From positions 620,001-684,000 of the forward strand of contig CM039006.1 of NCBI GenBank assembly GCA_017499595.2: 64,000 nt of DNA. Reading direction: 5' to 3'. Positions within the stretch are counted from its first letter, which is position 1. The number at the start of each line of letters is the position of its first letter. Source of the DNA: Psilocybe cubensis. Its lineage: Eukaryota. Shown in pieces: positions 1 through 55,166 of this stretch. The position numbers and the translations under genes were made by a program. A model generated the notes under the pieces. The model saw nothing but the letters and a program-made list of their open reading frames with translations, searched no databases and was not told the DNA's origin.

Positions 1-1039
1 GGCTACTACTTCGCGGTGATGCCTAGGTCATTCTTTCACTGGAACACTATGGAACCACTGTCGCTGAATAGTTTTATTAGATGGGGCCGTAGCGTTACTG
101 TGCCATACATCTTCAAGGTATCCGAGGTCATTCCGTTAATTCGATCAATGCTGAAGGTAGTGTTAACATATCTTAATATCTTCTCACGTGTATCTGAAGG
201 CAAAATGCAGGCTTTGGCTTATTTGCATGAGAATAACATCACCCACGGTGTCGGTCATTTTTTTAAAAAATGTCAATATTCTTTATTTTAATGTGGTTGA
301 AAACATTTAGGATATTGGAAAACATAACGTTTTAACCAACCACTTCTATTGCCTGAACGACATGGGGTATTTGGAGCGCTACTCCATGAGGAGTAGAGGG
401 ATCCTCCTGTATGCAGTCATTGACTTCGATGCCTCTGTGATGCTGCCAGCAGACGTAGACAGGTCCAAGTTTCGCCTCCCTTACGAAAAAGGCTTTCGCA
501 GATATCCCACTATTAAGGACATGCAGACGGGCCCATTTGATTATAATCCTTTTGTACAAGACGTTGGAGCCATGGGTGCAATGCTGTGTCTAAATTTTCA
601 GGTGAGTTTCGAACATGAGTGAATTCAAACCGATAAACTGACAACTTGATAGCATCTCTCTCTGCACTTGCCACTGCTGGCACCTCTTTTTGACGGGATG
701 ACTACATGGGAGCTCGACAAGCGATTTACGGCCAGCGAGGCACTCCAATTCTTTAACGACCGCGTATCTGAAATTGTGGAAGAGCAGTTAGGAGAGTGCC
801 CACAAAGTGAAAATGACAGCCAACTTTACTACTATGATGATTACGACCGATGGAAGACGCTTTCTCCCGACTTTGTGGAGAAATGGAAAGTATATAAAGC
901 TCGAAAGGTACCGTTACGGATTCGCCTCCTCCGTTGGCTATATTTCAAGCCATACTTCTGCCATATTTTACCTAAAACTAGACTCTTCTTTCACAAACTT
1001 TTCCATCTTCCTCGTGTAATCATAGAAATGTTCATGTAG
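1..1039 (+). CDS. Fungal protein-kinase-like gene K1 (AgaK1-like family), 5' part outside window
   Basis: GT-AG spliced exons give FAVMPR, LAYLHENNITHG-DIGKHNVL, YAVIDFD, YNPFVQDVGAMG and MTTWELDKRFTASEAL. The visible part is open. Confidence 0.85.
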
Positions 1040-1086
1040 ACAAATGCTGCTTAATACACTTGATATAATCACTAGCATGTAGCTGA

Positions 1087-1229
1087 TTTCGAGGTCAATT
1101 CATCTTCCATTGCTACCCAAGGGACTAGGATGCGTCGCCCGACTGCTCCTTCTTGCGTAGTCCCTTGCTAAAGCTTCATCACGCCAGTAGAGAAGACCTA
1201 TGGGCACGATGTGCATCAAGTTCCCATTG
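1087..1229 (-). pseudogene. ARH remnant with ~600-bp internal deletion and 5' truncation
   Basis: 1118-1229 matches 22539-22650 of the intact gene and is joined directly to a diverged copy of its last codons (1087-1114). Confidence 0.85.
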
Positions 1230-3402
1230 ATAGAAAAGTGACGTTCGGCATAGCAGCATATAAGAAGGTGTTGTCGGAATGGCGGTTTGAGGGACAATCA
1301 AAGAATTCATAGGACCGAGAGTTGGAGACAGCGATTTGAGGAAAGGTACGGGAAATTTACAGAGTTGAAGGGTGTCTCTATCAGAAATAATCAATCGCAA
1401 GATAAGTGCAATACGCACTATGACATTGTGAAGGTGAGAGGCGGAAGGTTTGAGTGCGCTACAGTCGACGGTGGAGAGCGACCAAACGATTTTCCGTGAC
1501 GTTGAATTCACCCGGGACTTTCCGTCGCATTGTCGGCCCGTCAATGCCGTCGATCTCGACTCAAACCCAACTCCGAGTCAACTCCCGCCACTCGCCATTG
1601 TTGCTTCGAGTCAGAGATCTGCCTTACATCCATCCCTCTTGATCATGTATACACAGCCTTCGGTATATGAGGTGTCTCTTAGATTGAAAGAATGCATCTT
1701 CTGTCTGAAGTTCATACCTTGTACTAAGTTGTAGAACATCCGGTCTTGCGATGTCCTCCGTCAGCCTGCCAACCATATCGCATATCGCAACGTGGAATGA
1801 TAAGTGATAGAACACCTGAGGCAGTTTTCAAGTCAAAAAAAGTAATCATCTTGAATTATTCATCCAAGAGTCATGACCGCCATGGACAGTGAAATTCTCA
1901 GATTGCTTCCTCGGTCCCATTATAGTTTTTCTTACTACATATCTCACGTAAAAGTGCTATTACGTGTATGCTAAGAATAGAGATCATTTTCATCTTTCTT
2001 GTGTGTAAAGTACTTGGATCGTCGTGGATGCGGAATCGATTCGCCTGAAAATCCAAATCTAGTCATCGGTGAAACCAGGTTTGAAACATGATTCATAGAA
2101 CTCGCGCTGGCTGTCAATGATGGGAACACAACCTTTCTATACAATCGTCCTCTCGGCGGAATAAATCACATATTCGACGGTGAGTGGCACTCTACCATCT
2201 GGAGCTTATAGAGGCACATGTACCCTGAAGTATATTAGTACATGTTCCCAGCCAAAGATGCTCGAAGAAGGGTTCTGTGTATGTGAGGCCCACTGCGGAG
2301 GATTCCAGAGAACACCCTGAGTTTCAACGCCGGGAAGCAAGCTGGAAAATTACAGGTCTTCAGACACTGGGCAGTCTTCTATTGGAAGATACCATTGTCA
2401 AAAAAAAATTTGTCTTTCCGGATGCGAAAACTTCTTCTGAATTGAGACAGAAGTTCTTGTGCGACTCCTGAATTCTGGCGGCGGACACGACCAGCTGAGT
2501 GGCTTGCCACTCGAGCGAGGGAAAGATTGTTGTGATTTGACAGATTTTTGATTTAAAACTGCTTCTCGGACTATGTACCGAATTATTTTGGGGTGTGCGG
2601 GCAAGCGGAGTGGTGTTTGTTGGGCTGTCAAGTACATCTCCAGAAGTGCTCCATGGTAGAAGAATAGTTCGCTATAACTCCGTCGACTTTCGTCTCAAGG
2701 CGTACCTTCTTGTGCGGTCTGGATAATCGATTATACATTCTAAGACTAGATTTCCCACAGCTTCACACAAAAAACAAGTCGTCTAGTCAGCAGTTATAAT
2801 CTGATCAGCTACACACACACTTAGCGAGTGGCGTGTGAAAGTGAATATGGCAGACTTAATGACTCGATTACGACTACCAAAGCATTGAATCTGAAGGGTC
2901 GCAGCTTTATCCGCGGTGCTGGGGATAGGTACACGAGGATATGGAAGTTTCGGGATCTCGGTCCTCAATTATCCTATCTTTATTTGTTCTTTTGTCGGAA
3001 GATCCAATGAAGTCATTACTGCAGATGACTCCCTCATCCGCCCTTTAGTAGAGATATTCCACGTAAGGGTAGCATAAATCCATAGATCCACCGACTCATC
3101 GCCGCATAGGATCGCAGTAGACATCACGCAACAGGCTATACGAAATAGTATCAAGCTTTGTTTTCTCTACACGTCCCTGGAAGATAAACCTGTTCATCTT
3201 GATTGATTTCTAAGAAGGGAGAATCTAGCAATTGTTCCCACACATGAGTCATCTTGAATAGTACCTTACTTCAAAACCCCGATGATGTGAATGAATACCG
3301 GCGGTACTAGTGCTAATTACAAACAGACACGGAGAACTTGTCGGTATCCATGCCCATACCGATTTTGTGAGTATACCATTTTCAGTGGCAAGCGCTTAAT
3401 CA
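1118..3402. repeat. Segmental duplication copy A (copy B = 9240-9509 + 14480-16574)
   Basis: Direct sequence match, near-identical to ~2560 and increasingly diverged to the right. Confidence 0.95.
1230..3380 (-). pseudogene. Degenerate multi-exon gene remnant of unknown family
   Basis: Protein-like fragments with stops and frameshifts in both duplicate copies. The ~2020-2140 segment (GCVPIIDSQ...LDLDFQANRF) is homologous to ORF 3656-3898. Confidence 0.4.
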
Positions 3403-3655
3403 ACGCTGGTCTAAATCGACAAAGAACAACATGCAGCTAACATTACAGATTTAACTTAGCCCTGAGTTACTTGTATGAATTTTACGGAAAAAGATTTAAG
3501 ACGGCAAGAAAAGGTGTATGATGATGATGATGATGACGTGTGCCAGTCAGAGGAAGAGAAACAAACAAACGACTTGGTCATCTCAGTAACTAATACTACA
3601 TGACTTACATACTATTCTAAACAATATAGCAGATAGCAGAGTATTGTGCATTGAT

Positions 3656-3898
3656 TTAAATTTTGGAACTGTTTTGCGAGAGGTACTTGTAAGGATCTTT
3701 CGAAGTTCGATTATCGTTCACATGAAATTGATTTGCCGAGAAATCCAAATCGAGAGAAATCCATCCATTGATGAGAACAGGGTTGAACCATGATGTTTTG
3801 AACACGCTCTGGCTGTCAATGATTGGAATACAACCGTGTTTGGCGTTTCTATACAAACATGCTCTCAAGAACTTCAAGAATTCCAAGACTGAAGTCAT
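3656..3898 (-). pseudogene. Fragment paralogous to the remnant at ~2020-2140
   Basis: LYRNAKHGCIPIIDSQ...LDLDFSANQF aligns with the frameshifted translation of 2141-2020. Confidence 0.45.
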
Positions 3899-4801
3899 TA
3901 AATAGGTAATGACTCAATTGAAAACAGTCAGGCTAATTATTGTGTACCCTGCAAGGTATCTAGCGGAATAAAGGCAGATCCTTCCGCAGTATTGGCGATG
4001 GTCGTTGGTTTGTGGACCTTAGCTTACTACAGACAAGGAGCCAAACGCGTCTTGGGACTCCACATTCCATATCGGTGTTACTGCTTCATCATTAGTTGTA
4101 AATCATTTTAATTTGTTCCGTGATATACTATCTATCTCTGCATCTCCGTGATAGAGCAGTGATATGAGTGTGAAAAATTCCCCCTAAACATTAGCCATCC
4201 CTGGCCATCCTATTAAATAAATCAGGGTTTCTGCGTACAAGACGTGTCGATCTGTGTCGATTTCAGAAAACACGCTGGACTTTCTAAGCTTGGAACACGA
4301 GCTAAAGAAGTTCATATTCTGGCAGATGTCAAGACAAAAGCGTTTTTTGGCAACCAAATACTATAGTGGACTGGAATTCATTATTGTCAGAAGGGGAAGA
4401 ACCCCTCCGGGAGCTTCCTGGGGTCTATATTCCAATCGGAGTTACTACACGTTCACAACTGTCGCTCAATCCCAAACATCCTCATGGAGGTCCGGAAGAG
4501 TATCGACGAATCAAGTACAAGTGACTCGGGGAAAAGATGTGAGATCTCCTTGCTCACATTATCTGATAGGTACTCGATTCCATCCGTGTCTGGATATGCA
4601 ACATGCAGGATGGTCCAACGGGAGATTTTCTCCCTTGCCTCGTTTTAATCATTTGGCCAGTGAAATCTCTGGCGTTAAAATTGCAATTTAAAATATATAA
4701 AGTGGATCTCATGAAATTGACAAGCCCCAAGTCCATTCAGTCCTTAATCTTTATTTCGAATTAGTACTCCTCCCAAGGCGTTCCCTCAGTCTTCAGTCGA
4801 A

Positions 4802-5669
4802 ATGTCAACAGTCCTACCTTCTAGAGATGCCATTCCTCAACCTGTGAGTTTGGAATTATCACAGTCGAGTAAAGTTCTTAAAGGCAAACATCATTCTCAG
4901 ATCCAAAAGGGCGAATTGGTAAAGTTGACAGAAAGTATACCCGGCAAGTATTATGATCAGAACTCGGACAAATATGAATACACAGTTCCGGCTGGAACAA
5001 TTGTTCGCATACACGATTCATTGCTGACCAGACAAGCGGTTAGTGTCTAGTTCAAATGTTCCATAAATTTTACAATTTTTTATTCTCAGATCGAGGGGCA
5101 AGCTCGATTAGGCTACGATTACATATTTTCGTTGGACATGGACGACTTCAAATACCACTTGGTGGCTCCTACAGGCATCTCTGTGATTTCAAACCCAATT
5201 CCACATACAAAACTTGCCATTCTGCCTACGTCTTCTACCAATACGAGGGAGATGAGGAAAGACCGTTTTTGGAAGGTATGTCCTTGCCATTCTCTGAGCT
5301 ACTTTCTTATTTCGAACTTGCGGACTGAAACAGTAAAACTAGATTAAGAATGTTGCCTTTGTTCGAGAGGCCCACAGAGCTCCTGTCGGCAAGCAGACTG
5401 AAAGCGGCTGGGTGACTGTCAACGTTGGAGATGGTATTATAATCGAAGGTTTTCCTGAATCCCGTAAGGTGGGTACCGATTTTATCCGGAGCGAAAATTG
5501 TCACTGACACGCTTAATGAACATGGAAATCCAAACTGTAGGGCAGCACGCGAGTCCCAAATTATGAGTCTGCCTTCTACAATTTTGGTGTGGGCCGTATT
5601 GTTGGCACCAAGACACCAGTTTGGCACTCAGCCACTCGCCACGGGCCACATGTCTTTGAGAGAACTTAA
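4802..5669 (+). CDS. Hypothetical protein (~205 aa, 5 exons), paralog of 17198-18138
   Basis: TATA-like motif at ~4694. Four phase-0 GT-AG introns splice to an open frame MSTVLPSRDAIPQP/IQKGELVKL.../IEGQ...DRFWK/IKNVAF.../GSTRVP...ERT*. Confidence 0.75.
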
Positions 5670-6405
5670 ATAAGGGCTATACAGTACAACTTCTGATGAT
5701 AATGGCTTGAGATTGCAACGTTACAGCTATTTTCATATCGATAGGCCTAACGTACAAACATACATATTCATACAGTCGGACTTGAATTTCTGCGTAGCCG
5801 AGTTACATAGGGCCCCCTATGGGATGCTCCTATTTTACAATTTTACACCAAGGCATTGACATACCCTTTAGTTTGAGAGGGAAATGGATCTAAAAATGCA
5901 GCTGTCGCGATGGTATCAAAGTTTGTTTTATTAGCTCAATTTTTTACGAGGAGTCCTGACTGTCACGGTAAGGAAGGGCCTGTTAGCGAAGCAGGACGTG
6001 GCTTTGCTTCGCTCAACCCATGGCGGGTAGCAACGGATCATAAAGCTCGTCGATATGAACACCGCTATATAGATGTAATATTGAGTAGTCCTGAAGCGCC
6101 GCCGTCGTGGGCAGCACACACTGGCATGGGCAGCATAGCCAGCCCACCTGCATATCGACTTTTAACTATTTGTGCATACTGGATCGGGATTCGGGACACC
6201 TTTTACACCTTTCTTTTTGACCCAACAGAGCAGCCAATGATGTCTATCAATATAATGAATGTTTGGCATAATTACGTTGGTAAAATCTAGAGATGGCAGA
6301 GGAAACCGAACGTAATCCCAGCCAATTAGGACCATAATATAAACAAGAACAAATTGAACGAGAGTCCATGATGGGTTTTAAAACATGAGGTGATGATGAT
6401 CTGGA

Positions 6406-8073
6406 TTAAATCGCAATTTTTGAGGAGAAAACAAAACTGTAAACTGTTTTAAACACAGATGCCAGACACGAGAGGTAGAACCGGGTCTTAGGGAGGATAT
6501 AGGGGTTCAATCTTGACAAGTGTCGGTCCAAGAAGCGGAATGTTTGTAGATGCCAAGGGATGGGTGGGGTCCTGTATGATTTCCAATCTTCTGCAACTTC
6601 TGCAGGAACACGAGCCCATATGTCCCATTCTAAATAGGCCTTATGGGGGCTAATAGCTCCGATGTAATCACGGAGTTCCTCTTCTGGAACTTCCGCTAGA
6701 CGTTCTTCAAAAAATATGAGAGCCTCCGATGCCGTGAATCGTTGACTGATATCCCATGTTGTCATCTTATCGATCAATGGTGCCAGAAAGTGAATCTTCG
6801 CTGCTGCAAGCTAGAGATCAATTTATTGGTTCAACAATCTCATTTAATAATACTCGAAATGAAACGAAACCTACGCCGAAATTCTGAGCAAATTGTACAC
6901 CAAGCCCACCCACATCCAAAGCAAACGGATCATAGTCGTACTCCCCACCTGCTGTATCGTAGCTTAGATTGAACGTGCCCCAGGATTCGTAATGGGGGAG
7001 TCGGCATTCCGTTTTATTCGCTGTAGGCGGAAACATAATCGAGAGATCGTAGTCGCAAAGGGCGTATCGGATTACCCTATTCTCTCGACGCTCTTTACAC
7101 CATACATTTATATCGTTGAAATCTTCATTTGACATGTTGGAAAAATGGCTTAACAACACGTTCTCAAACCTGATGTCCTGGTGTTGGTGTTAGTACATGG
7201 TTCATCCGGATTATCAGAATTGAACAAAACGTACCCCGTGAACGATATTATGTTCGTGAAGATAGCTTAATCCCTATGTTTTATATTAGAAAAATGAATA
7301 AAATGTGGCTGGGATTTAACGCACTTTCAAGCATGAATGCATGATCTCAATGATTTCGAACATATAGGTAAAGGAAGGACGAAAAAGATCCGGCCCCCAT
7401 CTCAAAGTCAAAACCATTCATCAGGTGAGAGTGGGGTATAGGTCAAGGAACAGCCTACCTCGGCATAACAGCAAACCAGAATCCATCATTGGGTAGCAAT
7501 TCCAGGACAGGAAGGATGCAGCTCTTCTTCAAAACCTCGAGGTTCTGCTGGTTCAAAAATCGTAGCACACGGTACTCGTCCGTGTCAGCATGCACAATTT
7601 TAATCGCAACATGTCGCTTATGCGTGTCTTGTGCAAACACAACTTTTCCCTATTTGTTTGGTTTTCGTTAATTGAAAGGCAGCAACACTAGTTGTACTCA
7701 CAGTCGTCTCACAGGCGCCAAGGGGAGGTTGAGGTGGGAAACCCTCCCAGACATTGACCCTAACATCATACGATGAATATGGATACTCGACATCAACAAA
7801 TTCGCTGTCGGACTCCGGGGGGAAGACAGGATACGACGAGTCCGTTGGCAATGTTGCCCCCGTCGAATAGGTAGCGTATCCACGCTGGTACAGAGTGTAT
7901 CCTCGGAGCTTAAACCATTCGATGGTATCAGGGGAGTCCCAGAACTCCCGACGCTCTGGATCGCCAGAACCACCTTGTCCTGCCTTGAAAGAAAATGTGA
8001 CTTTGAGGGGAGGTGACTAACATAATTTAGCAGCTTCAATAGCATACACAGGAAGCAGATTACTTACCTCCAT
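6406..8073 (-). CDS. Fungal protein-kinase-like gene K2, apparently intact
   Basis: Spliced exons: ME/SPPL..FWDSPDTIEWFKLRGYTLY, HVAIKIV, LHEHNIVHG-DIRFENVL, YALCDYDLS, YDPFALDVGGLG, RFTASEAL. Confidence 0.85.
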
Positions 8074-8618
8074 GTTAAACCTCTGTGGAACCTCGTGCAA
8101 TCTAAATTAAAGAGCTAGATGGTCAAATATCGCACAGCTCTTAAGCCGTGTTCGCAAAAGTGGAAGCACAAAGTTTGGTTCAATTGAACTTCGTTGAACT
8201 AACGTTGAACCATTTCCCTCGTGGCTTCGACGTGAGATAATTCCCACATCTCTCAGGTGACTGTGCCTCACCGTACATCACAGGAAAAAATCGTGTAGGG
8301 CCGGACGTCTACGGCATAATATATTACCGACAACTGAGAACATCCACTTTTTTTTTATTGTCGTGCAACAAGCAATCGATGTGCTAAGACGGACGGGTGA
8401 GCGTTTCTCACCTTTCTACGCTAAGGTATCTACTGTCCTAAGAATAGCGGGGTTTGTATATCTATTGGATCAGCTGTAGGTGTTAGTTTGCATTATCGGT
8501 GGTTTGTAGAGAACATCCACTTGGGCTTAGTTACGAGTCCTCCTTTAGGAGGATTCGTTGTGTATCATCGACACCCCGCCAAAATGTTTGCTATACTTAA
8601 TCACTCGTATTTAGCTGA

Positions 8619-9351
8619 TTACAAGTTAAATTCATATTCCATTGCTGCCAGATCCTTGGCCACCGTGTCGATAATATCACGGCGTACCAAGTCTTCGCAC
8701 CATGATTTGACTCGTGTCGTCCAGAACACTCTATCTCCATCTCCTTCCTCTGCTGAATACCAGCAAGCAGCCAGACCTGCGAAGATAGCGCCAACAGTAT
8801 CCGCATCGTCACCAAGGTTCACCGCCAACAATGCACCGTCTTCAAATGTCGATGTGGCAAAAAAGCAGTAGAGCGCAGCTACGGCAGAATCTAGGACGTA
8901 TCCTGTCGAAGGCAGCTGCTTGACTGGAGGGATAGTATAAGCAAAACCCTTTGTCTTCGTGGAAACTGTTCCTGGTCGTTGGGTGTCCGCGATGAGTCGG
9001 AGTAATGGATGGTGCTGCCAATACCAGGCCTCGCGATCGACATCATCTTCAGGAGCAGGACGGATACGAGAGGGAATCGCTAGGGCATCCCGGAGTGTAA
9101 TAGTCTTATAAGGGAAGCTAGAAATGTAGTGAAGTAGGTCAAGTTTTGAGAATCGTTTAGCGGAGGGTTTGGGGGCACGTGTACTCTCCGCCATGATGGT
9201 GGCGATCGCACCGGTCCACATCTCGCACATTTCAAGACACAAGGGACTAGGATGCGTCGCCCGACTGCTCCTTCTTGCGTAGTCCCTTGCTAAAGCTTCA
9301 TCACGCCAGTAGAGAAGACCTATGGGCACGATGCGCATCAAGCTCCCATTG
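8619..9351 (-). pseudogene. 5'-truncated ARH copy
   Basis: Protein-identical to the intact gene from NGSLMR to KDL. It lacks the DALG and TDDT motifs and is fused upstream to unrelated sequence with no in-frame ATG. Confidence 0.85.
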
Positions 9352-9608
9352 ATAGAAAAGTGACGTTCGGCATAGCAGCATAAAAGAAGGTGTTGTCGGA
9401 ATGGCGGTTTGAGGGACAATCAAAGAATTCATAGGACCGAGAGTTGGAGACAGCGATTTGAGGAAAGGTACGGGAAATTTACAGAGTTGAAGGGTGTCTC
9501 TATCAGAAACTTGTTTTAGTGGGCCACCGCGGAGCGTGGCATGACGAGTCTTTACGATTCAGCGTCACGCTTTGTAATAATATAATATATATATAATATA
9601 ATATAAAT

Positions 9609-10583
9609 ATGTCCAACTTTGACGTGGATATCGGTGCAATGGACGAAGTAATATTCAGACTCCAAGGCATAGTTAGCGACAAGATGCTACCACCAATGGC
9701 AAAGCCTGCTTCGTACGTCCACTCCATTGAGGTGAATTAATTACAAATGAGGACTGTTACAGCCGCAACAGAACGGTCAAGCAACAACCATATTTACGTA
9801 CCGCCATTGCTATCACGGGACTCGGAGACATTGTGTTCAATAAGGTGATGGAAAAGCTAGAAGAAGTTTTCCTCCGTTTTGCAAACAATTTTCCCGCGGA
9901 CAGCGTCAGCGGCTATGACCCAGTTCTTCACAAAGACACGGGTTTCAATGTTTTCCATGCGCATAGCCAATATTTCACGAAGGTATCCGCATATCAAGAC
10001 AAATCTGACAACATAGGTTTTCATCCCCTGGTCGACCCTGATAACGTGTTGGCGTCCATGGTAGGGGACAGTTTCATCCACGCAATTGATAACAAGGTAC
10101 AGTTTCTTTGTCGGGAGATACTTCCTGATGGAACAGCCAGATATGTTTAGAAAATACCAATAACACATCACAACCAAACTAATATCATGTTGCAACAGAT
10201 ATTATTCTTATAATCCTGCCTCCATACGAATTGGAGACATTGTCGAGATCAGTGTTGCCTTTGTCACATTTCCTGCCCAAGGAAACAAGTACAAATTTGT
10301 TGTCGCTCTTCGCGGAATACTTGTCTTGGACCAGGAGGCAAGAGAGGTAAGCAATGTTACATTGAACAGTCTCATAGCCATTCATAACTTCCAACAGAAA
10401 GCTGATATTCTCAGAATGCGGTCGCGCTATACTCCAGCGAAAAGACAGGTTGCTGTTTTGTGTAGGACAAAGAGGCAGCTGTACAAAGGTCAGATTGACA
10501 TTGAAGACACGCAACAGAGGATGACACGTATGCGCTTAAATGAGGACACAGTCCACAATAGAAATACTATGTCCCAAGATTAA
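9609..10583 (+). pseudogene. Element cargo gene A: putative OB-fold/ssDNA-binding-like protein, splice donor damaged
   Basis: Four exons: FRLQGIV, TAIAITGLG, VDPDNVL, DNKVQF, PASIRIGDIVEISVAF...LRGILVLD. The intron 2 donor at 10141 reads AT instead of GT. The fold is inference. Confidence 0.6.
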
Positions 10584-10728
10584 TACATATGTACATAGAA
10601 AGACAAGGATATCATAAATGTGCTGAACGAACAATCAATCCATTTGCGTGAACATTGTAAATAACAAGGAATAATTTGTCAAGTCATTTTCATGACAGAA
10701 ATTATCTGAAGATGTTAGTTGGCACCCC

Positions 10729-10909
10729 ATGGGAGAATCCTGCGTACACTATACGCAGAATATTCCCACACTCGGCTGAATATCGGCGAGGAAGTCTGTG
10801 GGAGAATTCTGCGTACACTGTACGCAGAATATTTCCACACTTGGCTGAATATCGGGAGAGGTTGACCGTGGGAATATTCTGCGTACACTGTACGCAGGAT
10901 ATTCCCACG
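10729..10909. repeat. Three tandem ~69-bp units, each with a 41-bp palindrome
   Basis: GTGGGAATATTCTGCGTACA-C-TGTACGCAGRATATTCCCAC-like units starting at 10729, 10798 and 10868. Confidence 0.95.
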
Positions 10910-12084
10910 CTCATCCGCAAGTCAAACTTACAAATTAAGACAAAAAGAATGAGGACAAGAACACAAGTTTATTTCGAACAAAAATTTGACTAAGGATGGA
11001 AGAAATTACAAATATCCATTCCACAAGAGGCTTTGTGGTTGAGGGCGATGCAACCAAAAAATATCTGCCTTTCTGGATAGCAAATACAAAACAGTTGCAT
11101 GTACACGGTCATCTTTTTGCCTACATTACAGGAATTAAATTGACAAATACTAAAACTAAAGAGCACACACCTTATACCCCTTTCCCAGGATTTGATAGCT
11201 TTTTTGACACGCTTGTGTAATTGGTAAACATCTGCCGCTGTGTAGTGAAAATCTAATGCAATACCGCTGATGCGACGGACACCAAAATGCAAACAATCAA
11301 ATTCATTGAGCAACAATGCCCACAAATTGGCTTCAACAAAGGAAGTCTGATTTGCTTTGGGTAAAAGAGGCAAAGAATAAACCCAACAATGCCTGTCGCC
11401 AACCCGTCTAATCCCAGGAGAGAACAACTCTGGATAAGGATCGTAATCCAGCACAACGAGAACATGACCACGAGATGAACTATACCCAACATTTACGTTG
11501 TCCCTGATAGACTGTATCCTGCTTTGGATATGGCGGTCCATTTTCAAAGTTTGCGATGGAATGGAAAGAACAAATTTCAAGCCACGGGAATGATATTTTG
11601 CAAGAAATTTTTGCGCGCGCTTGAGGTCGGCAGAAGGTTGCAACAGAGAGACTTGATGTCCAAAGGTAGCATTTGGATACAAGCTGTACACCTTCTCAAA
11701 GGTAACAAAATTCATGACGCCGGCTGCAGTAGAACAAAATTGAAGTTAACATTGTTTTGACACATGACATTGGGGACATACTGCTATGATACCCCAAAAT
11801 GCACTCTACCACCGATTGACAAGTCGTAATCAGTTGGACAAAAGAACCTTGGCACCATAGGTTAACGACCACTCCAGTGGTATTGTAATGTCGATGAAGA
11901 GGATGTTTCTGAAGGACGATTTTTTCTATTTTCAAAATTTTTTCCGCTGTGGTGTTGTCCGGATATTTGGGATGCGGCATGATAGTAAATCCAATGGACA
12001 TCATCCAGGAAAGAACGGGAAGAGCATATCTGTGCTCGACATACATGTCCATGTCACCCGGAATCCATATATTAGCACGATTGA

Positions 12085-13524
12085 TTACGAAACTTTATGT
12101 AAGTAAAGTGAGTTCTTTTATCCCCACAACCCACTGTACAAAAATATGTCCTTGCCAATTGTCCCCATCAGTAAATCATTGATGCCATCAAAATTGCGTG
12201 ATTAATACCGGTTTTTTACTTAACCGGTATGCTTGACTTAATAATCGGTTACTATCATAGAATTTCTGTTAGTTTTTGTTCCTACCAAGGGGATATGGAA
12301 ATTAAAATACTAGATATTAGCTAGGTAGATAGGTTAGCTGCCATATGGTAGAAAACAAAATTAGATACCATTACATTATGACTTTTTAATTGCAAGTTAA
12401 ACATTTTGACGCAGATAATCATCGCTCATAACCAAAAACTTTATAATAATGACCTCATTTAACTGATTTAAGGCCATTAATTAGTCAAAATCAATTACAT
12501 ACCAACTGTTTTGCATGCTTTATACACCTCTAACGGCAAGTAGAGGTAAATAGAATGCTTTATTGTTATCAAAAAAAATTTAGCATGAATGACTAGCAGA
12601 CTGTGGTGGCATAGAATAAAGAATAATAAACATTATGTATCTAGCTATTATCTTTAATGCCACTTCAAATAACTTGTCATATTAAACTTGTTGTGCTGTT
12701 CATACTGGCCATAAATTAATAAGCAGACTGTGGGAATAACTTGCATATAGTGTATGCAAGTTATTCTCACGGTTGCCGCACTTTGCATTGAGCAACTTGA
12801 ACTTCTCTGGTAATTCCTGATATATTACTGAGATGCATTGCATATACTTTAGGTAAAATACAAGTATTTTTGGCAATAATAATTATTTTCAGTCCTAGTT
12901 TAGATGATCTTATTATATTTTACTTGCTGTGGTGTTTGTACTGGCCGTGAATTAATAAGCAGGTCGTGGGAATATCCTGCGTACAGTGTGCGCAGGATAT
13001 TCCCACGGTCACTACACTCAATTTGCATTGAGCACTGGCCACTTTGGTCAAGAGATGGTCATTTTGAATAATGTTTTCCATGCATTGAATGTATTTTGGG
13101 GAAGAAATAATGCACTAACACTTGCAAATTATGCTTGAAATATGTTTCCACACAGCCAATTGTGTTCACAGCAACATCAAACTATGCCAAAAAGAAATAT
13201 GCGCACCAAACAAATGTTTTTGCACACAATATTGTTTCACTCTTGATGCACTTTTCAAAAATAAGAAAATTATATTTATGGGAAATATGTCCCCACTTGG
13301 GCAGCCATACACATGAGCATTCTTCCATCAGTTTTCCATACGGGATTCTCCCAGCAGATCTGGAATTCTTCAATATTTAGCAGGTATGAAAATTATAATA
13401 GACAAGTTCTTCCTTACAATTAGGCCTTATAACCTGTGCATAATCTAGATTAAAAAATATTTTATACAATTGTGAGATGTAAAGTCTTGTCATGCCACGC
13501 TTTGCGTTGGACCACTAAAACAAG
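12085..13524 (+). mobile_element. Nested 1,440-bp non-autonomous element of the same family, inverted
   Basis: First ~140 bp are homologous to the outer 5' end. It ends tgtaaagtcttgtcatgccacgc...ccactaaaacaag like the outer 3' end. Excision restores the codons LHFINR. Confidence 0.85.
12730..13007. repeat. Two more copies of the 41-bp palindrome within a ~236-bp tandem duplication
   Basis: Palindromes at 12730-12770 and 12966-13006 with homologous flanks (actggcc..aattaataagcag upstream, tttgcattgagca downstream). Confidence 0.9.
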
Positions 13525-14479
13525 TAAAATGCAAAAAGGTGGAACCTGAAATAACCAGGCCAGTCTTGAACTGGAGAAGACGAAACAGCAAATGTTCATT
13601 GGGTTTGAAGATAGGAGCAAATAAATTTTTGGGACGGAAGGCGCGGCGCATATAGCCCGAAACGCGGTCGTTTAGCTTCTTGCAAGTCCAAGAGAAACGG
13701 TAAAGAGTTTTCAGATCCATCTGATCCATGTACACATCGTCCATGGGAGGCGGAAAGACTCTAAAAAATAAGTAATAACCAAATGAGATAAAACAGTGAA
13801 CATACTGTTGGAAACGCAGTGCGGAGAAAAGTGCATTGTCTATACTACGTCAATAAATATATTAACCGTAAGCCGATAGACGCCCGACGTAGGGGAAGAA
13901 CAAATTGGTATGTGTGAGAAACAATCATGAATCAGAAAATCAAATTCAAATAGTACAGAACGCCCAGAACCCAAGAACGCGTAATTATTTCTATTTGAAC
14001 TCTGATTGATGAAGCTACCGATATCAAGGAACGTGTGTGCCTGCACAGTTCTATTTCCAACCTTTCAGACCCATAGTTCAAAGAGTGCATTTGTTCCATC
14101 TCTAAGTATTAGTACAATATATAAGCACGTTGGCTAGACGGTTCCACATGGTTTTAAAAATTAAACAACAACGCAAAAAAGTGAATTGAGTAGGACTATT
14201 GTTGTTGGGTATAATTAATTTTATGGAAACGCACATTCACATTGCGATCAAAACAAATCAAAAACAACCTTTAAAGTAACCAATGGTAAAAAGAAGTCGT
14301 AGAATGAATTGGAAAGGGGTTGCTTAGGGGGTCCGGTGACCGCTTAAGGAAAATACCGATAGCGGTAACGACATTGATCGCATCAATAATATTTTGATGG
14401 GGACAATTGGCGAGGACATTATTGCTCGCTGGGTTGTGGGGATAAAAGAACTCATCTTTACTTACGTAAAGACTCGTAA

Positions 14480-16574
14480 TAATCAATCGCAAGATAAGTG
14501 CAATACGCACTATGACATTGTGAAGGTGAGAGGCGGAAGGTTTGAGTGCGCTACAGTCGACAGTGGAGAGCGACCAAACGATTTTCCGTGACGTTGAATT
14601 CACCCGGGACTTTCCGTCGCATTGTCGGCCCGTCAATGCCGTCGATCTCGACTCAAACCCAACTCCGAGTCAACTCCCGCCACTCGCCATTGTTGCTTCG
14701 AGTCAGAGATCTGCCTTACATCCATCCCTCTTGATCATGTATACACAGCCTTCGGTATATGAGGTGTCTCTTAGATTGAAAGAATGCATCTTCTGTCTGA
14801 AGTTCATACCTCGCCGACCTTGTACTAAGTTGCAGAACATCCGGTCTTGCGATGTCCTCCGTCAGCCTGCCAACCATATCGCATATCGCAACGTGGAATG
14901 ATAAGTGATAGAACACCTGAGGCAGTTTTCAAGTCAAAAAAAGTAATCATCTTGAATTATTCATCCAAGAGTCATGACCGCCATGGACAGTGAAATTCTC
15001 AGATTGCTTCTTCGGTCCCATTATAGTTTTTCTTACTACATATCTCACGTAAAAGTGCTATTACGTGTATGCTAAGAATAGAGATCATTTTCATCTTTCT
15101 TGTGTGTAAAGTACTTGGATCGTCGTGGATGCGGAATCGTTTCGCCTGAAAATCCAAATCTAGTCATCGGTAAAACCAGGTTTGAAACATGATTCATAGA
15201 ACTCGCGCTGGCTGTCAATGATGGGAACACAACCTTTCTATACAATCGTCCTCTCGGCGGAATAAATCACATATTCGACGGTGAGTGGCACTCTACCATC
15301 TGGAGCTTATAGAGGCACATGTACCCTGAAGTATATTAGTACATGTTCCCAGCCAAAGATGCTCGAAGAAGGGTTCTGTGTATGTGAGGCCCACTGCGGA
15401 GGATTCCAGAGAACACCCTGAGTTTCAACGCCGGGAAGCAAGCTGGAAAATTACAGGTCTTTAGACACTGGGCAGTCTTCTATTGGAAGATACCATTGTC
15501 AAAAAAAATTTGTCTTTCCGGATGCGAAAACTTCTTCTGAATTGAGACAGAAGTTCTTGTGCGACTCCTGAATTGTGGCGGCGGACACGACCAGCTGAGT
15601 GGCTTGCCACTCGAGCGAGGGAAAGATTGTTGTGATTTGACAGATTTTTGATTTAAAACTGCTTCTCGGACTACGTACCGAATTATTCAGGGGTGTGCGG
15701 GCAAGCGGAGTGGTGTTTGTTGGGCTGTCAAGTACATCTCCAGAAGTGCTCCATGGTTGAAGAATACTTCGATATAACCCCGTCGACTTTCGTGTCAAGG
15801 CGTACCTTCTTGTCCGGTTTGGATAATCGATTATACTTTCCAAGGCTAGATTTCCCACAACTACACACAAAAAAACAAGGCTTCTAGTCAGCAGTTGTAA
15901 TCTGATCAGCTACACACACTTAACGAGTGGCGTGTGAAAGTGAATATGGCAGACTTAATGACTCGATTATGTCTAGCAGAGCATTGAAATGTGAAGAGTC
16001 GCAGCATTATCCGCAGTGTTGGGGATAGGTACACGAGGACATGGAAGCTTCGGGGTTTCGGTCCTCAGTTACCCTATCTTCGTTGTTCATTTGTCGGAAG
16101 ATCCAACGGAATCATTACTGCAGATGACTCCCTCATCCCCTCCTTACTAGAGATATCCCATCCAAGGGACGCATAGATCCATATATCCGCCGACTCTTCG
16201 CCGCATAGAATTTCAGCAGACAATACACAACAGTCTATAATGTATAAGCTTCTTTCGCCTTACACATTCCTAGAAGATAACCCTGTCCATCCTGATTAAT
16301 GTCTTTGAAGAAGGGAGAATCTGGCAGTTCTTCCTACATCCGAGTCGTCCTTGAGTCAAAACACCTATGATGTGGATAGATACCAGCCTTACCGCTGTGC
16401 ACTCGGAAGGCGTGTAATATGGTTTGACACGTTTGAGATGCGTTGCAATTAAGCGCAATAGCGAACTTGTCTGCGTTTCCATTTGTTGTCAATTGAGTAG
16501 ATAGTTGATTATAACATTATTCATTGGTTTCGATCTCGTGAGTATACCATCTTCAGTGGCGGGTGCTTAATCAA
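14480..16574. repeat. Segmental duplication copy B (right part)
   Basis: Matches 1388-3402. Confidence 0.95.
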
Positions 16575-21309: not shown

Positions 21310-21870
21310 CTCAACCAATTTCCCCATCGCATACCGCAGACACGACGGAATTACCTTTTCTACGGTGCCTGATGCAGACAGGGATGCTCAACGGGAATTT
21401 TGGAGTTCTTCAACGACTTTGGAATGGTTCAAGCATCGTGGCTATAAGCTTTATCGCTCTATTGACGAAACCGATAAAATCTATCCAATGCACCCACCTG
21501 AATGCTTTGAAGACTCTGAATTCTCCTTTTACTTGGCTTATTATTCATTCTTACGCTTCCTTCGAGACTCTGAAAGATAATGATATGCACCCACTTGAGG
21601 ATGACAACATCCGGGTGAGTATTTATTAACAGATATTATTACATTCGCAGCCAATATCACAAATACGATGATTACGACCGATGGAAGACGCTTTCTCCCG
21701 ACTTTGTGGAGAAATGGAAAGTATATAAAGCTCGAAAGGTACCGTTACGGATTCGCCTCCTCCGTTGGCTATATTTCAAGCCATACTTCTGCCATATTAT
21801 ACCTAAAACTAGACTCTTCTTTAACAAACTTTCCTATCTTCCTCGTGTAATCGTAGGAATGTTCCTGTAG
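21310..21870 (+). pseudogene. Kinase K4 remnant with the catalytic core deleted
   Basis: An N-terminal exon (EFWSSSTTLEWFKHRGYKLY, frameshifted) is joined within its intron to 21664-21870, which is near-identical to 833-1039. Confidence 0.85.
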
Positions 21871-21917
21871 ACAAATGCTCCTTAACACACTTGATATGAT
21901 CAATAGTATGTAGCTGA

Positions 21918-23174
21918 TTACGAGCCAACTTTATCTTTCATTGCTGACAGATCCTTGGCCACCGTGTCGATAATATCACGGCGTACCAAGTCTTCGCACC
22001 ATGATTTGACTCGTGTCGTCCAGAACACTCTATCTCCATCTCCTTCCTCTGCTGAATACCAGCAAGCAGCCAGACCTGCGAAGATAGCGCCAACAGTATC
22101 CGCATCGTCACCAAGGTTCACCGCCAACAATGCACCGTCTTCAAATGTCGATGTGGCAAAAAAGCAGTAGAGCGCAGCTACAGCAGAATCTAGGACGTAT
22201 CCGGTCGAAGGCAGCTGCTTGACCGGAGGGATAGTATAAGCAAAACCCTTTGTCTTCGTGGAAACTGTTCCTGGTCGTTGGGTGTCCGCGATGAGTCGGA
22301 GTAATGGATGGTGCTGCCAATACCAGGCCTCGCGATCGACATCATCTTCAGGAGCAGGACGGATACGAGAAGGAATCGCTAGGGCATCCCGGAGTGTAAT
22401 CGTCTTATAAGGGAAGCTAGAAATGTAGTGAAGGAGGTCAAGTTTTGAGAATCGTTTAGCGGAGGGTTTGGGGGCACGTGTACTCTCCGCCATGATGGTG
22501 GCGATCGCACCGGTCCACATCTCGCACATTTCAAGACACAAGGGACTAGGATGCGTCGCCCGACTGCTCCTTCTTGCGTAGTCCCTTGCTAAAGCTTCAT
22601 CACGCCAGTAGAGAAGACCTATGGGTACGATGCGCATCAAGCTCCCATTGCCAGAGAAGTTGACGCTCGACAAGTTGCTCTGAATGCGATCAAGCGCTTC
22701 TTCAGGTTTCGATGACTCATAGATATATAGTGCTTTATTGATAGTTGCCCCGACGTCAAAGCAGCTCCCGATCGCTGATAGATGGCCTTCGTTACGCCAT
22801 CGATTATAGAGTTCAAGTTGATGCAGTTCGTCGAATCCACCTTTCTCGGATGACTGGGTTGGTGGCTGGTAGGTGGTCAAAGATTCTGCAAGACAGAGTG
22901 TCATGGAGGTGTCGTCTGTCCATACCCCAGCGGGGAGGCCAAAAGTTTTATTGGGCTTCATGGTATCGATGAAGGGGAATGAGAACCGGCCGCGGAATTC
23001 AGCAGGGCCACCGAGTGCATCGACGAGTGCGGTGGCAAGGATGGTTAACTGAATTTTGGTAGCTGAGGACGCATGTGTTGGGTACTGTGTGCGGAGCGAT
23101 CCAATGTTTGGCGTGTCTGGTTGCAATTGGACGCCCGACACACTCTCAGCGTCATTCTTTCCAAAAGGTGCCAT
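21918..23174 (-). CDS. ADP-ribosylglycohydrolase (ARH/DraG family), intronless, 418 aa
   Basis: Motifs DALG, WTDDT, GNGSLMR, SRATHP and NLGDDADT. Confidence 0.93.
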   Translation of the reverse strand: MAPFGKNDAESVSGVQLQPDTPNIGSLRTQYPTHASSATKIQLTILATALVDALGGPAEFRGRFSFPFIDTMKPNKTFGLPAGVWTDDTSMTLCLAESLTTYQPPTQSSEKGGFDELHQLELYNRWRNEGHLSAIGSCFDVGATINKALYIYESSKPEEALDRIQSNLSSVNFSGNGSLMRIVPIGLLYWRDEALARDYARRSSRATHPSPLCLEMCEMWTGAIATIMAESTRAPKPSAKRFSKLDLLHYISSFPYKTITLRDALAIPSRIRPAPEDDVDREAWYWQHHPLLRLIADTQRPGTVSTKTKGFAYTIPPVKQLPSTGYVLDSAVAALYCFFATSTFEDGALLAVNLGDDADTVGAIFAGLAACWYSAEEGDGDRVFWTTRVKSWCEDLVRRDIIDTVAKDLSAMKDKVGS

Positions 23175-23797
23175 GGATAGCCAATCTCTTGCGGGTCAAA
23201 TAGAAGCGTAGTCTGAGCGTTATGTGTTAGGTTTGTGGTCCTTTTAAGTGGCAATTGTTTGGGGCGCTCGTACAGCCTTCAACTTTCATAAAATGCTGTG
23301 CATTTGGGCGGAAGTGCACGGTGTCAAACCATGGCACCATACACTGATACCGCTGCCAAGGCACACGCAGCTGTGCTCTGTAGCAATCGATTTATTGCTC
23401 GCAGTGCGTCTGCACTTAGTTTGGTGATGTTAACCTGGACCTCGTATGAAAGCAGTGAATTGAAGGGATTGCTATGAGAATAGAGATGTTATGGTTGGTA
23501 TAAGTTGTGTCCATCCGAAAACCAAGGCCCAGAATCACAACACAGGCACAGGGAACATGGTATCCAGCGCGTAAGATATAAGACGTCCCACTAGATGCGG
23601 TCAAGAGACGATAAAGAGAGATGATGTAGCGGATTTCACCCTCACGATGCAAGCATGCAGGATAACGAAGGGATCGGTGGCTCTCCGCAAGAAATCTTCA
23701 CAGGTTCAACTTCCTAAAAGACTTTCCAGTCATCTAAATCTATCAAAAGGAAAATAATTAGCATTTTGAATGGCAATAAAATGTATGATGAGAAAGG

Positions 23798-23889
23798 TCA
23801 GGATAACTAGGATTTATTCGGGTGCACATTGCGCAACGTTTTGATTTTAAACGGCGTTCGCTCGAATTCATATGACATGAATTCATCAC
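23798..23889 (-). ncRNA. Candidate intronic box C/D snoRNA-like RNA, copy 1
   Basis: GTGATGA...CTGA inside predicted intron 23924-23740; nearly identical to 55076-55166 while the flanks are diverged. Confidence 0.6.
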
Positions 23890-24412
23890 ATAGCGAAGGG
23901 ATCAGAAAGGAACAACGAACTCACCATGGGATTGCAGAGATCAGATTGCAATTGTATTGAACAGCAGCGTAGCAGAGAGACCCGTCTGGATCACCTTGAA
24001 TCCGAGACCGCAATGAAATGTCATGGAATGGGGACCAGAGCCAGACTCGATAGATAAACCAGAGCCAAAACAATATCCGTTACCGACAAGGAAGGAAAGG
24101 AAAGGAAGCAGTACGTTTATGTGAGCTGGGTCTCATCGAGGTCGGGGGTACACGGGAAGATAAGAGATGACATGGCATGATGGCATCTTTGCCGTCTTTG
24201 TTTGCCATACGCCGGTGAACCAAGCTCGGCATCATCCGAAACCTTGTCATAATGGCCTCGCTGCGAACTTAAACTTGCTGGCTACCTTTGTACTCGAAAT
24301 CAGATTTTACTTTCATCCTTTGATAAACGGTTGCAAATCTCGTGAATGGATCTATATCCCCGGTGGCGGGATGTTTTTAAGATTCCATTTCTCCCATCCT
24401 CCACCAGTTTCA

Positions 24413-49102: not shown

Positions 49103-49808
49103 TGTGGCCGTAATGTTCTGAGTTGACGAGCAATAAACGCTATCCTTCGATTGTCCAAGATTCAAAGCTGAGCCATTCATGGAACAGTGCTTCGGCATAG
49201 CTATTACCGAACGTCAGGGCGATATGGGGTTGGATGTTCCCATGTTGTTCCCATGACCAACCACCTCGAATTGCCAACCTAGTTTGAGTTGGATATTTGC
49301 CAAGGGAGACTAGGGACTACTAGGGACAGTGGAACGGAGGAAGTCTTCCGAATCATGGACGCATCGACAACTATAAAGTCCTCTCCTGAGCTTGTCCTGA
49401 GCAGATCTTTCAAGGTTTAGATTTTGTTGGCACAATGGCACCAGACAAAAAGTTTCAATCTCCTACGATCTCCGCTTTAAAGGTCGATTCTGCTTTCTTT
49501 GCTGCTCGTCTTGCTTCAGCCTGGTACCTGACACTTAACATGATCCATCTCCCATGCTGAACCGAAATTATTTTCTTGATATGATTTCATTATTCCAAAG
49601 GCGTTAAAGGTGAGTGCCTAACATTCTTTGATTCAATTCAAATAACTTTTCACAGAGCCTCCGGCACTGCCAGTAACCGGGAAGTTGACCTTTCGCCCCT
49701 ATTGCATGCGTCATGCTGGTACTACCAGCTGCGTTCAAATCGTTACTTTGATTGACCTCTCAACGTCTTTTCGTGTTCGAGGGAATTGGCTCTCAGGTTC
49801 CTTCAACG

Positions 49809-55075: not shown

Positions 55076-55166
55076 GTGATGAATTCATGTCATATGAATT
55101 CGAGCGAACGCCGTTTAGTATCAAATGTTGCGCAATGTGCATCCGAATAAATCCTAGTTATCCTGA
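55076..55166 (+). ncRNA. Candidate intronic box C/D snoRNA-like RNA, copy 2
   Basis: GTGATGA...CTGA inside predicted intron 55040-55228, with box D 62 nt upstream of the 3' splice site. Confidence 0.6.

Follow-up and report, generated by a model that had tools for sequence, protein, structure and literature searches.

A gene-carrying, composite and probably Helitron2-type transposon of Psilocybe cubensis, with its empty site in the same window

Positions 9510–14479 of the window (the whole 64-kb stretch of Psilocybe cubensis DNA that was analyzed) are occupied by a block containing two convergent, intron-containing genes, as a first-pass annotation of the sequence had proposed, and a smaller related copy at 12085–13524, which that annotation had overlooked. 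The window also holds a paralogous region, copy A, that lacks the block; the filled region is referred to here as copy B. As seen in a self-BLAST of the window, the segment with the element is locally triplicated. The components of the locus are as follows.

9510–14479, minus strand: outer element, 4,970 bp, probably non-autonomous and of the Helitron2/HLE2 type, delimited by the empty paralogous site at 1387/1388 and by contig breaks
1379–1397, no strand: empty target site in paralogous copy A, of the never-filled or pre-insertion type, from a 19-mer match and self-BLAST
9237–9509, no strand: left flank of the filled site, 98.5% identical to 1115–1387 (self-BLAST)
14480–16354, no strand: right flank of the filled site, 93.9% identical to 1388–3257 (self-BLAST)
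9609–10583, plus strand: cargo gene 2, with exons 9609–9713, ~9761–10144, and 10197–10583, open in this copy
11006–13744, minus strand: cargo gene 1, with exon 13744–13526, then the nested element, then exons 12085–11780, ~11726–11170, and 11122–11006
12085–13524, plus strand: nested second member, 1,440 bp, non-coding, 34% G+C, delimited by an empty site in reads and by paralogue P0009
12673–13034, no strand: palindrome-bearing repeat, two copies within the nested element, the same repeat as in the central array
10730–10912, no strand: central tandem array, 69-bp unit repeated 2.6 times, with an ~40-nt palindrome (GTGGGAATAT..ATATTCCCAC) in each unit
9577–9610, no strand: AT-rich microsatellite (ATAAT)n, just internal to the 3′ repeat

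The earlier claim of a 4,970-bp insertion without target-site duplication, relative to empty copy A, is borne out by two lines of evidence. The joined 19-mer tatcagaaa|taatcaatcg has a single occurrence, at 1379–1397, and was matched in none of 100 shuffles. In the self-BLAST, 1386–3257 aligns with 14478–16354 (93.9% identity) and 1115–1387 with 9237–9509 (98.5%), so that copy B holds exactly 4,970 bases more than copy A, with the target duplication being absent; the boundaries of the outer element are ambiguous by 2 nt (TT). When the remainder of the window was searched with the element by low-stringency BLAST, no additional fragments were recovered outside 9510–14479. A contig from run X1 that joins 9507 to 14478 carries a copy-B-like right flank, with 16 differences in 1,719 nt, and might be taken for an insertion polymorphism at the filled locus; we did not count it as such, because its left side comprises only 37 nt, identical in copies A and B, and its depth is double.

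The nested copy provides a second insertion with an empty site. In 36 reads from run X16, 12084 is joined directly to 13525, giving ...GATTGA|TAAAATG without duplication, and this exact skip restores the reading frame ...LHF-INRAN..., as in the uninterrupted paralogue P0009. The ends of the nested copy read TT-ACGAAACTTTATG ... TGTAAAGTCTTGT-CAT-hairpin-CCACTAAAACAAG, and its homology to the outer element, which extends over ~150 bp at the 5′ terminus and ~50 bp at the 3′ terminus, begins and ends at exactly identical bases in both copies. Thus, target duplication, the presence of which at other copies had been named as a check, is absent at both insertions for which an empty site is available.

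Cargo gene 1 is interrupted by the nested element between its G-S and D-x-D motifs and is predicted, from a structure model with a mean pLDDT of 78, to encode a nucleotidyltransferase-fold protein of a large Agaricales family. The best structural matches of the model are class II CCA-adding enzymes (Foldseek E 1.6e-4; Z 11.2, rmsd 4.1 over 176 residues), and it displays the features by which a Pol-beta-like nucleotidyltransferase fold was judged, namely, G-[GS] and D-x-[DE] motifs on a core alpha/beta fold. Across 60 relatives, G83, S84, and D102 are invariant, and D100 is conserved in at least 90%. Pfam assigned no family to cargo protein P0009, only a sub-threshold CDC48_N match (E 0.06) to cargo protein P0003, and no family to 27 of the 28 gene 1 relatives searched, the remaining one having an unrelated PXA domain. 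The same search of 28 relatives yielded no confirmation of the idea that the gene 1 family consists of F-box proteins; "F-box domain-containing" is a UniRef name only, attached to two of the nine listed cluster members. Cargo gene 2 belongs to an uncharacterized basidiomycete family.

On the minus strand, the outer element reads TT-ACGAGTCTTTACG ... CGTAAAGACTCGT-CAT-GCCACGCTCCGCGGTGGC-CCACTAAAACAAG, followed by TTTCTG, in agreement with the ends quoted in the first-pass annotation, including the TT start and the TTT after the 3′ end. The terminal features are these.

14465–14479, minus strand: 5′ terminus, TT followed by the 13-nt left inverted repeat ACGAGTCTTTACG, a perfect complement of 9544–9556
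14455–14472, minus strand: 5′ hairpin TCTTTAC-GTAA-GTAAAGA, overlapping the left repeat (-4.7 kcal/mol, z -2.2)
14330–14464, minus strand: 5′ subterminal block of ~150 bp, common to the nested copy and including the invariant TGAGTTCTTTTATCCCCACAACCCA (87% mean column identity)
9544–9556, minus strand: right (subterminal) inverted repeat CGTAAAGACTCGT, 34 nt from the 3′ end
9523–9540, minus strand: 3′ hairpin GCCACGC-TCC-GCGGTGGC, with one bulge, immediately after the right repeat
9510–9522, minus strand: 3′ terminal 13-mer CCACTAAAACAAG, with the same letters in the outer and nested copies

The inverted repeat of the outer copy is perfect (13/13) and asymmetrically placed, with its left copy 2 nt from the 5′ end and its right copy 34 nt from the 3′ end. 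Among 20,000 random pairs, each consisting of one 20-nt and one 60-nt stretch of the window located about equally far apart, only two reached 13. In both copies, the 3′ hairpin lies 3 nt past the repeat, and its stem comprises 7 pairs and one bulge. Both the asymmetric repeat and this hairpin had been described previously and are indeed present, although the hairpin is imperfect and energetically unexceptional, with z of -0.77 in the outer copy and +0.33 in the nested one, where it persists with altered bases in the loop and at the bulge. In the nested copy, decay of the inverted repeat has left 9 of 13 pairs, including 6 contiguous ones, and the 5′ hairpin has the same 7-pair stem, closed by A-T instead of T-A (z +0.10, not unusual). 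In the outer element, base 6 of the left repeat is T, and the two bases with which it pairs, one within the 5′ hairpin and one within the right repeat, are both A; the nested element has A at this position and T at both partners. This three-site covariation is read from two sequences only. Covariation of this kind is a prediction of the alternate-pairing model (PMC3627910, in the portion consulted).

Numerous other copies of the element exist in the genome. The X16 read depth is ~700–860 over 9708–14423 compared to ~20–60 in the single-copy flanks, that is, roughly 15-fold, and is uniform over the cargo genes and the nested copy in the raw reads; therefore, the composite, outer element and nested copy together, is amplified as one unit. 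Contigs from runs X7 and X8 match it at 98–99%; the match stops exactly at 9508 and at 14479, with unrelated sequence beyond. Another copy is inserted in a paralogue of gene 1 (joint 14478 to 13736, 28 reads), and paralogues of both cargo genes are annotated on at least five different megabase-sized contigs. Multiple copies with the same termini, the check set in the first-pass annotation, are hence found in the nested copy, in the ~15-fold depth, and in identical end bases elsewhere. The number of units in the central array differs between copies (read joint 10912 to 10868). No head-to-tail joints, whether from circles or tandems, were present among 15 of the 41 read joints. The element/flank depth ratio is also ~14-fold in "organisms D and E", and we accordingly do not infer horizontal transfer to them; both resemble samples, sequenced at low coverage, of this genome or a close one. 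The earlier view of the element as a gene vehicle has to be qualified: in most copies, the nested element splits one of the two genes.

These copies make it particularly unlikely, indeed barely conceivable, that the 5-kb block is not a transposon and instead arose by segmental duplication, gene conversion, or assembly error between paralogous regions. The position of the locus within a locally triplicated segment would accord with such an origin, as would the X1 empty-site contig, which is not assignable with certainty to copy A or B. However, the breakpoints are base-exact, homologous ends also bound a second insertion in a different context, and the unrelated flanks, the ~15-fold depth, and the paralogues on at least five large contigs in practice already refute this explanation.

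Due to the 2-nt ambiguity of the ends, two target readings are equally possible. If the element is read as TACGA...CAAGT, all four known 5′ flanks end in T and three of the four known 3′ flanks begin with T, a T^T insertion; read as TTACGAG...CAAG, three of the four 5′ flanks end in A and all four 3′ flanks start with T, which corresponds to A^T, the rule for Helitron1. The TNAT^T preference given for FoHeli1/2 (PMC5148889) is matched by two of the four 5′ flanks.

Taken together, we assign 9510–14479, with a probability of about 0.8, to the non-autonomous composite rolling-circle transposons of the Helitron2/HLE2 type (the Helitron2-Helentron-HINE group). The class suggested in the first-pass annotation is supported, with the end architecture agreeing item by item with the published Helitron2/HLE2 definition: a short (8–16 nt) inverted repeat with its left copy 0–2 nt from the 5′ end and its right copy subterminal, a 3′ hairpin right after the right repeat, a 5′ hairpin with part of the left repeat, and insertion without target duplication (at two empty sites) between T and T, the A^T reading being equally possible. 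A DDE "cut-and-paste" transposon with terminal inverted repeats, or a MITE, was rejected, given that the right repeat lies 34 nt internal and that duplication is found at neither empty site.

Unlikely, in our estimation, is a canonical Helitron (Helitron1/HLE1-like) with unusual ends as in Pleurotus HELPO, which would insert between A and T and in which the inverted repeat would be incidental. The A^T pattern obtained with the ends TTACGAG...CAAG (three of four 5′ flanks, four of four 3′ flanks) is compatible with this possibility, as is the hairpin stopping 13 nt short of the 3′ end (10–12 nt in canonical elements), and helitrons that insert at AT and end in a non-canonical CTTG are on record for Agaricales (PMC4289320, in part). 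Nevertheless, the canonical 5′ TC and 3′ CTRR are both absent, the ends being TTACGAG... and ...AACAAG, and the perfect 13-nt left/right repeat, the 5′ hairpin, and the covariation are the marks that, in the published descriptions as far as consulted, separate Helitron2/HLE2 from Helitron1.

No Rep or helicase domain was detected in 61 scanned ORFs out of the 80 of at least 110 aa in the window, consistent with the earlier statement that the element lacks a Rep-helicase, so membership in the Helitron superfamily is suggested by structure. Neither the conserved 5′ block nor the 3′ end gave a match (0 each) in exact-pattern scans of a metagenome collection, a result uninformative on the host fungus. 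A RepHel not being seen among these 61 of 80 ORFs would also suit a duplication-free element moved by another enzyme, such as a Crypton-type tyrosine recombinase, an IS607-like serine recombinase, or an unknown single-strand transposase, the ends of which mimic those of Helitron2. At each of the two empty sites, the element end and its target have one or two bases (T or TT) in common (2 and 1, respectively), which likewise fits recombination at a short common core. We regard this as improbable: an overlap of 1–2 nt is too short for a recombinase core. To our knowledge, no such end structure has been reported for Cryptons. Moreover, according to the consulted parts of PMC3627910, PMC11417382, and PMC4067079, the asymmetric repeat combined with both hairpins and with T flanks is a set of features specific to HLE2.

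For a Helitron2-type element, the following course of events can be envisaged. A 1.44-kb relative would have inserted, in opposite orientation, into one of the two convergent genes of an older element, and the composite would then have been copied to ~15 places. We infer that the element is mobilized by a RepHel transposase whose gene lies elsewhere; this enzyme would nick the top strand at the 5′ T/TACGAG end and then unwind and displace that strand, with the right inverted repeat, the 3′ hairpin, and the CCACTAAAACAAG tail together probably recognized as the stop signal. The displaced single strand, probably circularized, would insert at a T^T (or A^T) step without target duplication. The nested copy would be a passenger in this process, since it lies on the other strand and its ends are not read.

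A different reading, to which we attach little weight, is that the genome has no RepHel partner of known type or that the amplified unit is more than junk. In the latter case, the antisense nested copy may be kept in ~14 of the ~15 copies because the composite, and not the simple element, is the efficient substrate, possibly via paired palindrome arrays or an extra set of end signals. If so, the element would be a self-built "two-element" Helitron, the success of which is driven by structure rather than by the transposase, and the three-site base change would be a direct natural test of the alternate-pairing model of Helitron2 end recognition.

As a Helitron2-type element, the locus represents a well-supported non-autonomous family of a known and fairly ordinary kind of transposon, and our general understanding of such elements is unchanged by these findings. 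It does document a recently active, gene-carrying rolling-circle family in P. cubensis, and a composite element amplified after self-insertion. The filled and empty sites in one 64-kb window, together with the second empty site from reads, make a natural example of textbook quality, and the three-way covariation lends small comparative support to the Helitron2 end-recognition model. Copies of the element also inflate two annotated gene families, in which at least six and at least four "hypothetical protein" clusters, respectively, are copies of the element. As to the suggestion that the family might be undescribed, literature searches, which are its basis, returned neither a paper on Helitrons in the genus Psilocybe nor one describing this element family.

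Comparison with the described systems, in the parts of the respective papers that we consulted, places the element closest to known relatives as follows. Helitron2/HLE2 elements (Bao & Jurka 2013, PMC3627910; Li et al. 2024, PMC11417382) have the same asymmetric repeats, with the left one 2 nt from the 5′ end, the same subterminal right repeat directly upstream of the 3′ hairpin, a 5′ hairpin that includes the left repeat, and the same T start, T flanks, lack of target duplication, and compensatory change keeping the pairings. The right repeat, stated to lie 20–30 nt from the 3′ end in Helitron2 (PMC3627910), is slightly outside this range here, at 34 nt, but within the range reported for FoHeli and HINE; the terminal sequences are unrelated to the published examples, and the element is known here without a transposase. 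The non-autonomous Helentrons HINE/DINE-1 (Thomas et al. 2014, PMC4067079) share 13-bp subterminal repeats located 2–4 nt from the 5′ end, together with a 5′ inverted repeat close by; they also agree in the 3′ stem-loop, in having T at the boundaries, and in the placement of the microsatellite and the central tandem array, but are short, non-coding, and found in animals, whereas the present element is fungal, spans 5 kb, and carries two genes. FoHeli1 and FoHeli2 of Fusarium oxysporum (Chellapan et al. 2016, PMC5148889) are also fungal, ~5–6 kb in size, with hairpins at both ends and a similar 12-bp asymmetric inverted repeat, the right copy of which lies 38–51 bp from the 3′ end; they insert between TNAT and T, and self-insertions making composites have been described, as observed here. 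Unlike the present element, they are autonomous, encoding RepHel, reside in an ascomycete, and have the ends TCAG... and ...ATTTT. Finally, HELPO1 and HELPO2 of Pleurotus ostreatus (Castanera et al. 2014, PMC4289320) share the Agaricales host, the subterminal hairpin, and the absence of target duplication, but have canonical-like ends, T[C/G]...CTRR/CTTG, and A-T insertion, with terminal inverted repeats not mentioned in the sections consulted; their non-autonomous copies contain whole "captured" genes of unknown origin amplified with the element, similar to the situation in P. cubensis.

Self-BLAST of the window pairs positions 1115-1387 with 9237-9509 at 98.5% identity and 1386-3257 with 14478-16354 at 93.9% identity; therefore, one segment is present in the window as two paralogous copies. 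Where copy A runs on uninterrupted, copy B contains exactly 4,970 additional bases, and the comparison of the two copies demonstrates an insertion with no target duplication (0 bases repeated), with the cut points shiftable by up to 2 nt because TT is found on both sides. The junction of the empty site, tatcagaaa/taatcaatcg, occurs only once in the window, at 1379-1397 (string search). The first-pass annotation, which had proposed a duplication-free 4,970-bp insert with its empty site in the same window, is thus borne out, and all the details it gave for the termini on the minus strand are present in the sequence. The higher identity between the copies on the left than on the right of the insertion (98.5% versus 93.9%) hints at gene conversion.

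The insert contains a second member of the same family, which was overlooked in the first-pass annotation. Pattern searches of the window located each end of the family, 5' and 3', exactly twice, and self-BLAST yielded two inverted pairings (12079-12191 with 14484-14374 and 9509-9561 with 13525-13473). The features of the composite are as follows:

9510-14479, minus strand: outer element, 4,970 bp
12085-13524, plus strand: nested family member, 1,440 bp, 34% G+C, in the opposite orientation to the outer element
9609-9713, about 9761-10144 and 10197-10583, plus strand: exons of cargo gene 2, open in the window copy
13744-11006, minus strand: cargo gene 1, convergent with gene 2 and interrupted by the nested element after ...LHF
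10730-10912: 69-bp tandem array bearing a palindrome, in the outer element
12673-13034: two occurrences of the palindrome, in the nested copy

In alignments, the outer and nested members are homologous over their first ~150 bp and last ~50 bp, and in both copies the homology starts at TTACGA and stops at AAAACAAG(T). The palindrome common to both members is near-perfect and about 40 nt long (GTGGGAATAT...ATATTCCCAC), and reads indicate that the number of units in the array differs in other copies. No long open reading frame is present in the 1,440 bp of the nested copy. Its empty site was recovered from the public sequencing run X16, in which 36 reads, about one copy's worth, join 12084 to 13525, yielding the duplication-free sequence ...CGATTGA/TAAAATGC.

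On the minus strand, the outer element starts with TT-ACGAGTCTTTACG and ends with CGTAAAGACTCGT-CAT-GCCACGCTCCGCGGTGGC-CCACTAAAACAAG, with TTTCTG following outside. The complementarity between the left and right 13-nt repeats is perfect, a length reached by 2 of 20,000 pairs of random 20-nt and 60-nt stretches taken from the same window at about equal spacing. Single-stranded DNA folding yields a 5' hairpin that overlaps the left repeat, TCTTTAC-GTAA-GTAAAGA (-4.7 kcal/mol, z -2.2); the nested copy has the corresponding 7-pair 5' stem, of unremarkable energy (z +0.10), and the 3' hairpins in the outer and nested copies are of ordinary energy as well (z -0.77 and +0.33, respectively). At base 6 of the left repeat, the outer copy has T and the nested copy has A; the two bases that pair with it, one in the 5' hairpin and one in the right repeat, are A in the former copy and T in the latter. 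Overall, 9 of the 13 positions of the nested repeat are paired, the remaining differences weakening the pairing. In the model proposed by Bao and Jurka, the downstream arm and the right repeat are alternate pairing partners of the left repeat, and compensatory changes are reported there for two Culex elements (PMC3627910). The concerted change at three sites in the outer/nested pair (n = 2 sequences) matches this behavior.

To assess copy number, X16 raw reads and contigs of X1, X7, and X8, four of 16 public runs, were mapped on positions 800-16500 of the window at a likeness of at least 85%. With the two mate columns summed, X16 depth is ~20-60 in the flanks (800-5515 and 14948-16500) and 584-861 in nine bins spanning 9708-14423, a roughly 15-fold ratio that is even across both genes and the nested copy. 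The X7 and X8 contigs match the element at ~98-99% (for instance, 4 differences in 498 nt) and break off exactly at 9508 (X7 and X8) and 14479 (X7), beyond which lie three unrelated flanks; this reveals the multiple copies with identical termini that the first-pass annotation had named as a check of its proposal. In addition, 28 X16 reads join 14478 to 13736, and therefore another copy has its 5' end in the start of a gene 1 paralogue. Relative to most copies, the one in the window lacks 125 nt at 13441 and 29 nt at 13816 and thus has a few private deletions. Independent evidence comes from the protein database, in which paralogues of gene 2 form six clusters (77-96% identity) and those of gene 1 form four, all named Psilocybe cubensis and located on at least five different Mb-size contigs. 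Therefore, the depth, the copies with foreign flanks, and the paralogue clusters jointly demonstrate that the whole composite, beyond its ends, has been multiplied and dispersed.

The target site was compared across four 5' flanks (outer copy, nested copy, the 13736 joint, and X7) and four 3' flanks (outer copy, nested copy, X7, and X8). In the register TACGA...CAAGT, T ends all four 5' flanks and starts three of the four 3' flanks; in the register TTACGA...CAAG, A ends three of the four 5' flanks and T starts all four 3' flanks. A third possible register is ruled out by the empty site of the nested copy. The TNAT^T preference described for FoHeli1/2 (PMC5148889) fits two of the four 5' flanks here (TTAT and TGAT).

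For gene 2, no Pfam family was found, and the Atlas clusters closest to it consist of unnamed proteins from basidiomycetes. The uninterrupted paralogue of gene 1, P0009, reads LHF-INRAN across the interruption point, which agrees with the empty site derived from reads. For gene 1, 1,022 representatives were recovered at E ≤0.001 by a full HMMER scan; among the best 8 of these, 7 are named, all from Agaricales (P. cubensis, Panaeolus, Crassisporium, Agrocybe/Cyclocybe, P. cyanescens, Flammula, and Volvariella). With the element-borne paralogues P0008, P0010, and the 96-residue P0020 (88%) set aside, the closest relative found is the P. cubensis protein P0011 (45% identity). In an alignment of 60 family members, G83, S84, and D102 are invariant and D100 is at least 90% conserved. 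The AlphaFold model (mean pLDDT 78) matches class II CCA-adding enzymes as well as other nucleotidyltransferases of the Pol-beta type (Foldseek E 1.6e-4; Z 11.2, rmsd 4.1 over 176 residues). Thus, gene 1 belongs to a large host family and encodes a protein with a nucleotidyltransferase fold. Because the nested element separates the G-S motif from the D-x-D motif, gene 1 is broken in most copies. The family (P0009, P0011-P0158) is very large, belongs to Agaricales, and is without a Pfam model; certain members carry the UniRef name 'F-box domain-containing'.

The surroundings of the element are gene-rich. A segment with an ADP-ribosylglycohydrolase gene is locally triplicated (817-3257; 8600-9509 plus 14478-16354; 21648-22669), with PF03747 matches in the ORFs 8622-9419 and 21921-23195; copy A is without most of this gene. 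Read depth across 5516-8659 is 2-3 times that of a single copy, and a short piece near 5721-5812 reaches about 470-480, and 460 reads have a loose end at 5721. Nine reads that connect 13309 with 5764 place this piece in further copies of the nested-type element, and a BLAST search of the rest of the window gave no match to it. Self-BLAST also detected two diverged repeats in inverted orientation (23573-24165 and 54815-55441; ~600 bp, 76% identity, 31 kb apart), which are probably both old copies of another repeat. At 47098-52289, carboxyltransferase and biotin carboxylase/biotin-lipoyl protein genes (Pfam) adjoin on opposite strands, an ordinary metabolic context.

As described for Helitron2/HLE2 elements, the inverted repeats are short, the left lying 0-2 nt from the 5' end and the right in a subterminal position; a stem-loop follows the right repeat and a 5' hairpin forms on the left repeat; and the elements start with T and insert at T^T without duplication (PMC3627910; PMC11417382). 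HINE/DINE-1 elements are additionally described as having a microsatellite, central tandem repeats, and a variable number of boundary Ts (PMC4067079). All these structural items are present in the element. A RepHel partner also belongs to the definition of the group, and the assignment to Helitron2/HLE2 is made from structure; canonical Helitron1 ends (TC...CTRR) are absent from it. By analogy with the family, we infer a trans-acting route, in which a RepHel enzyme supplied in trans would nick at the 5' T, displace the top strand, and stop at the right repeat and hairpin, the strand then being integrated at a T-rich step. The nested copy would be carried passively because it lies on the other strand, where its signals would be encountered in the wrong sense, which would explain its presence in ~14 of ~15 copies. 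Among the papers listed by full-text searches of the literature, none deals with Helitron-type elements in the genus Psilocybe. Although unsurprising to a specialist, the element is a clean case, with empty sites, covariation, and a nested copy that was amplified together with it. Like the element described here, HELPO of Pleurotus resides in an Agaricales host and has amplified 'captured genes of unknown origin', but its ends are described as canonical-like (PMC4289320). In Fusarium, composites arising from self-insertion in the opposite orientation, as in the present element, have been discussed (PMC5148889).
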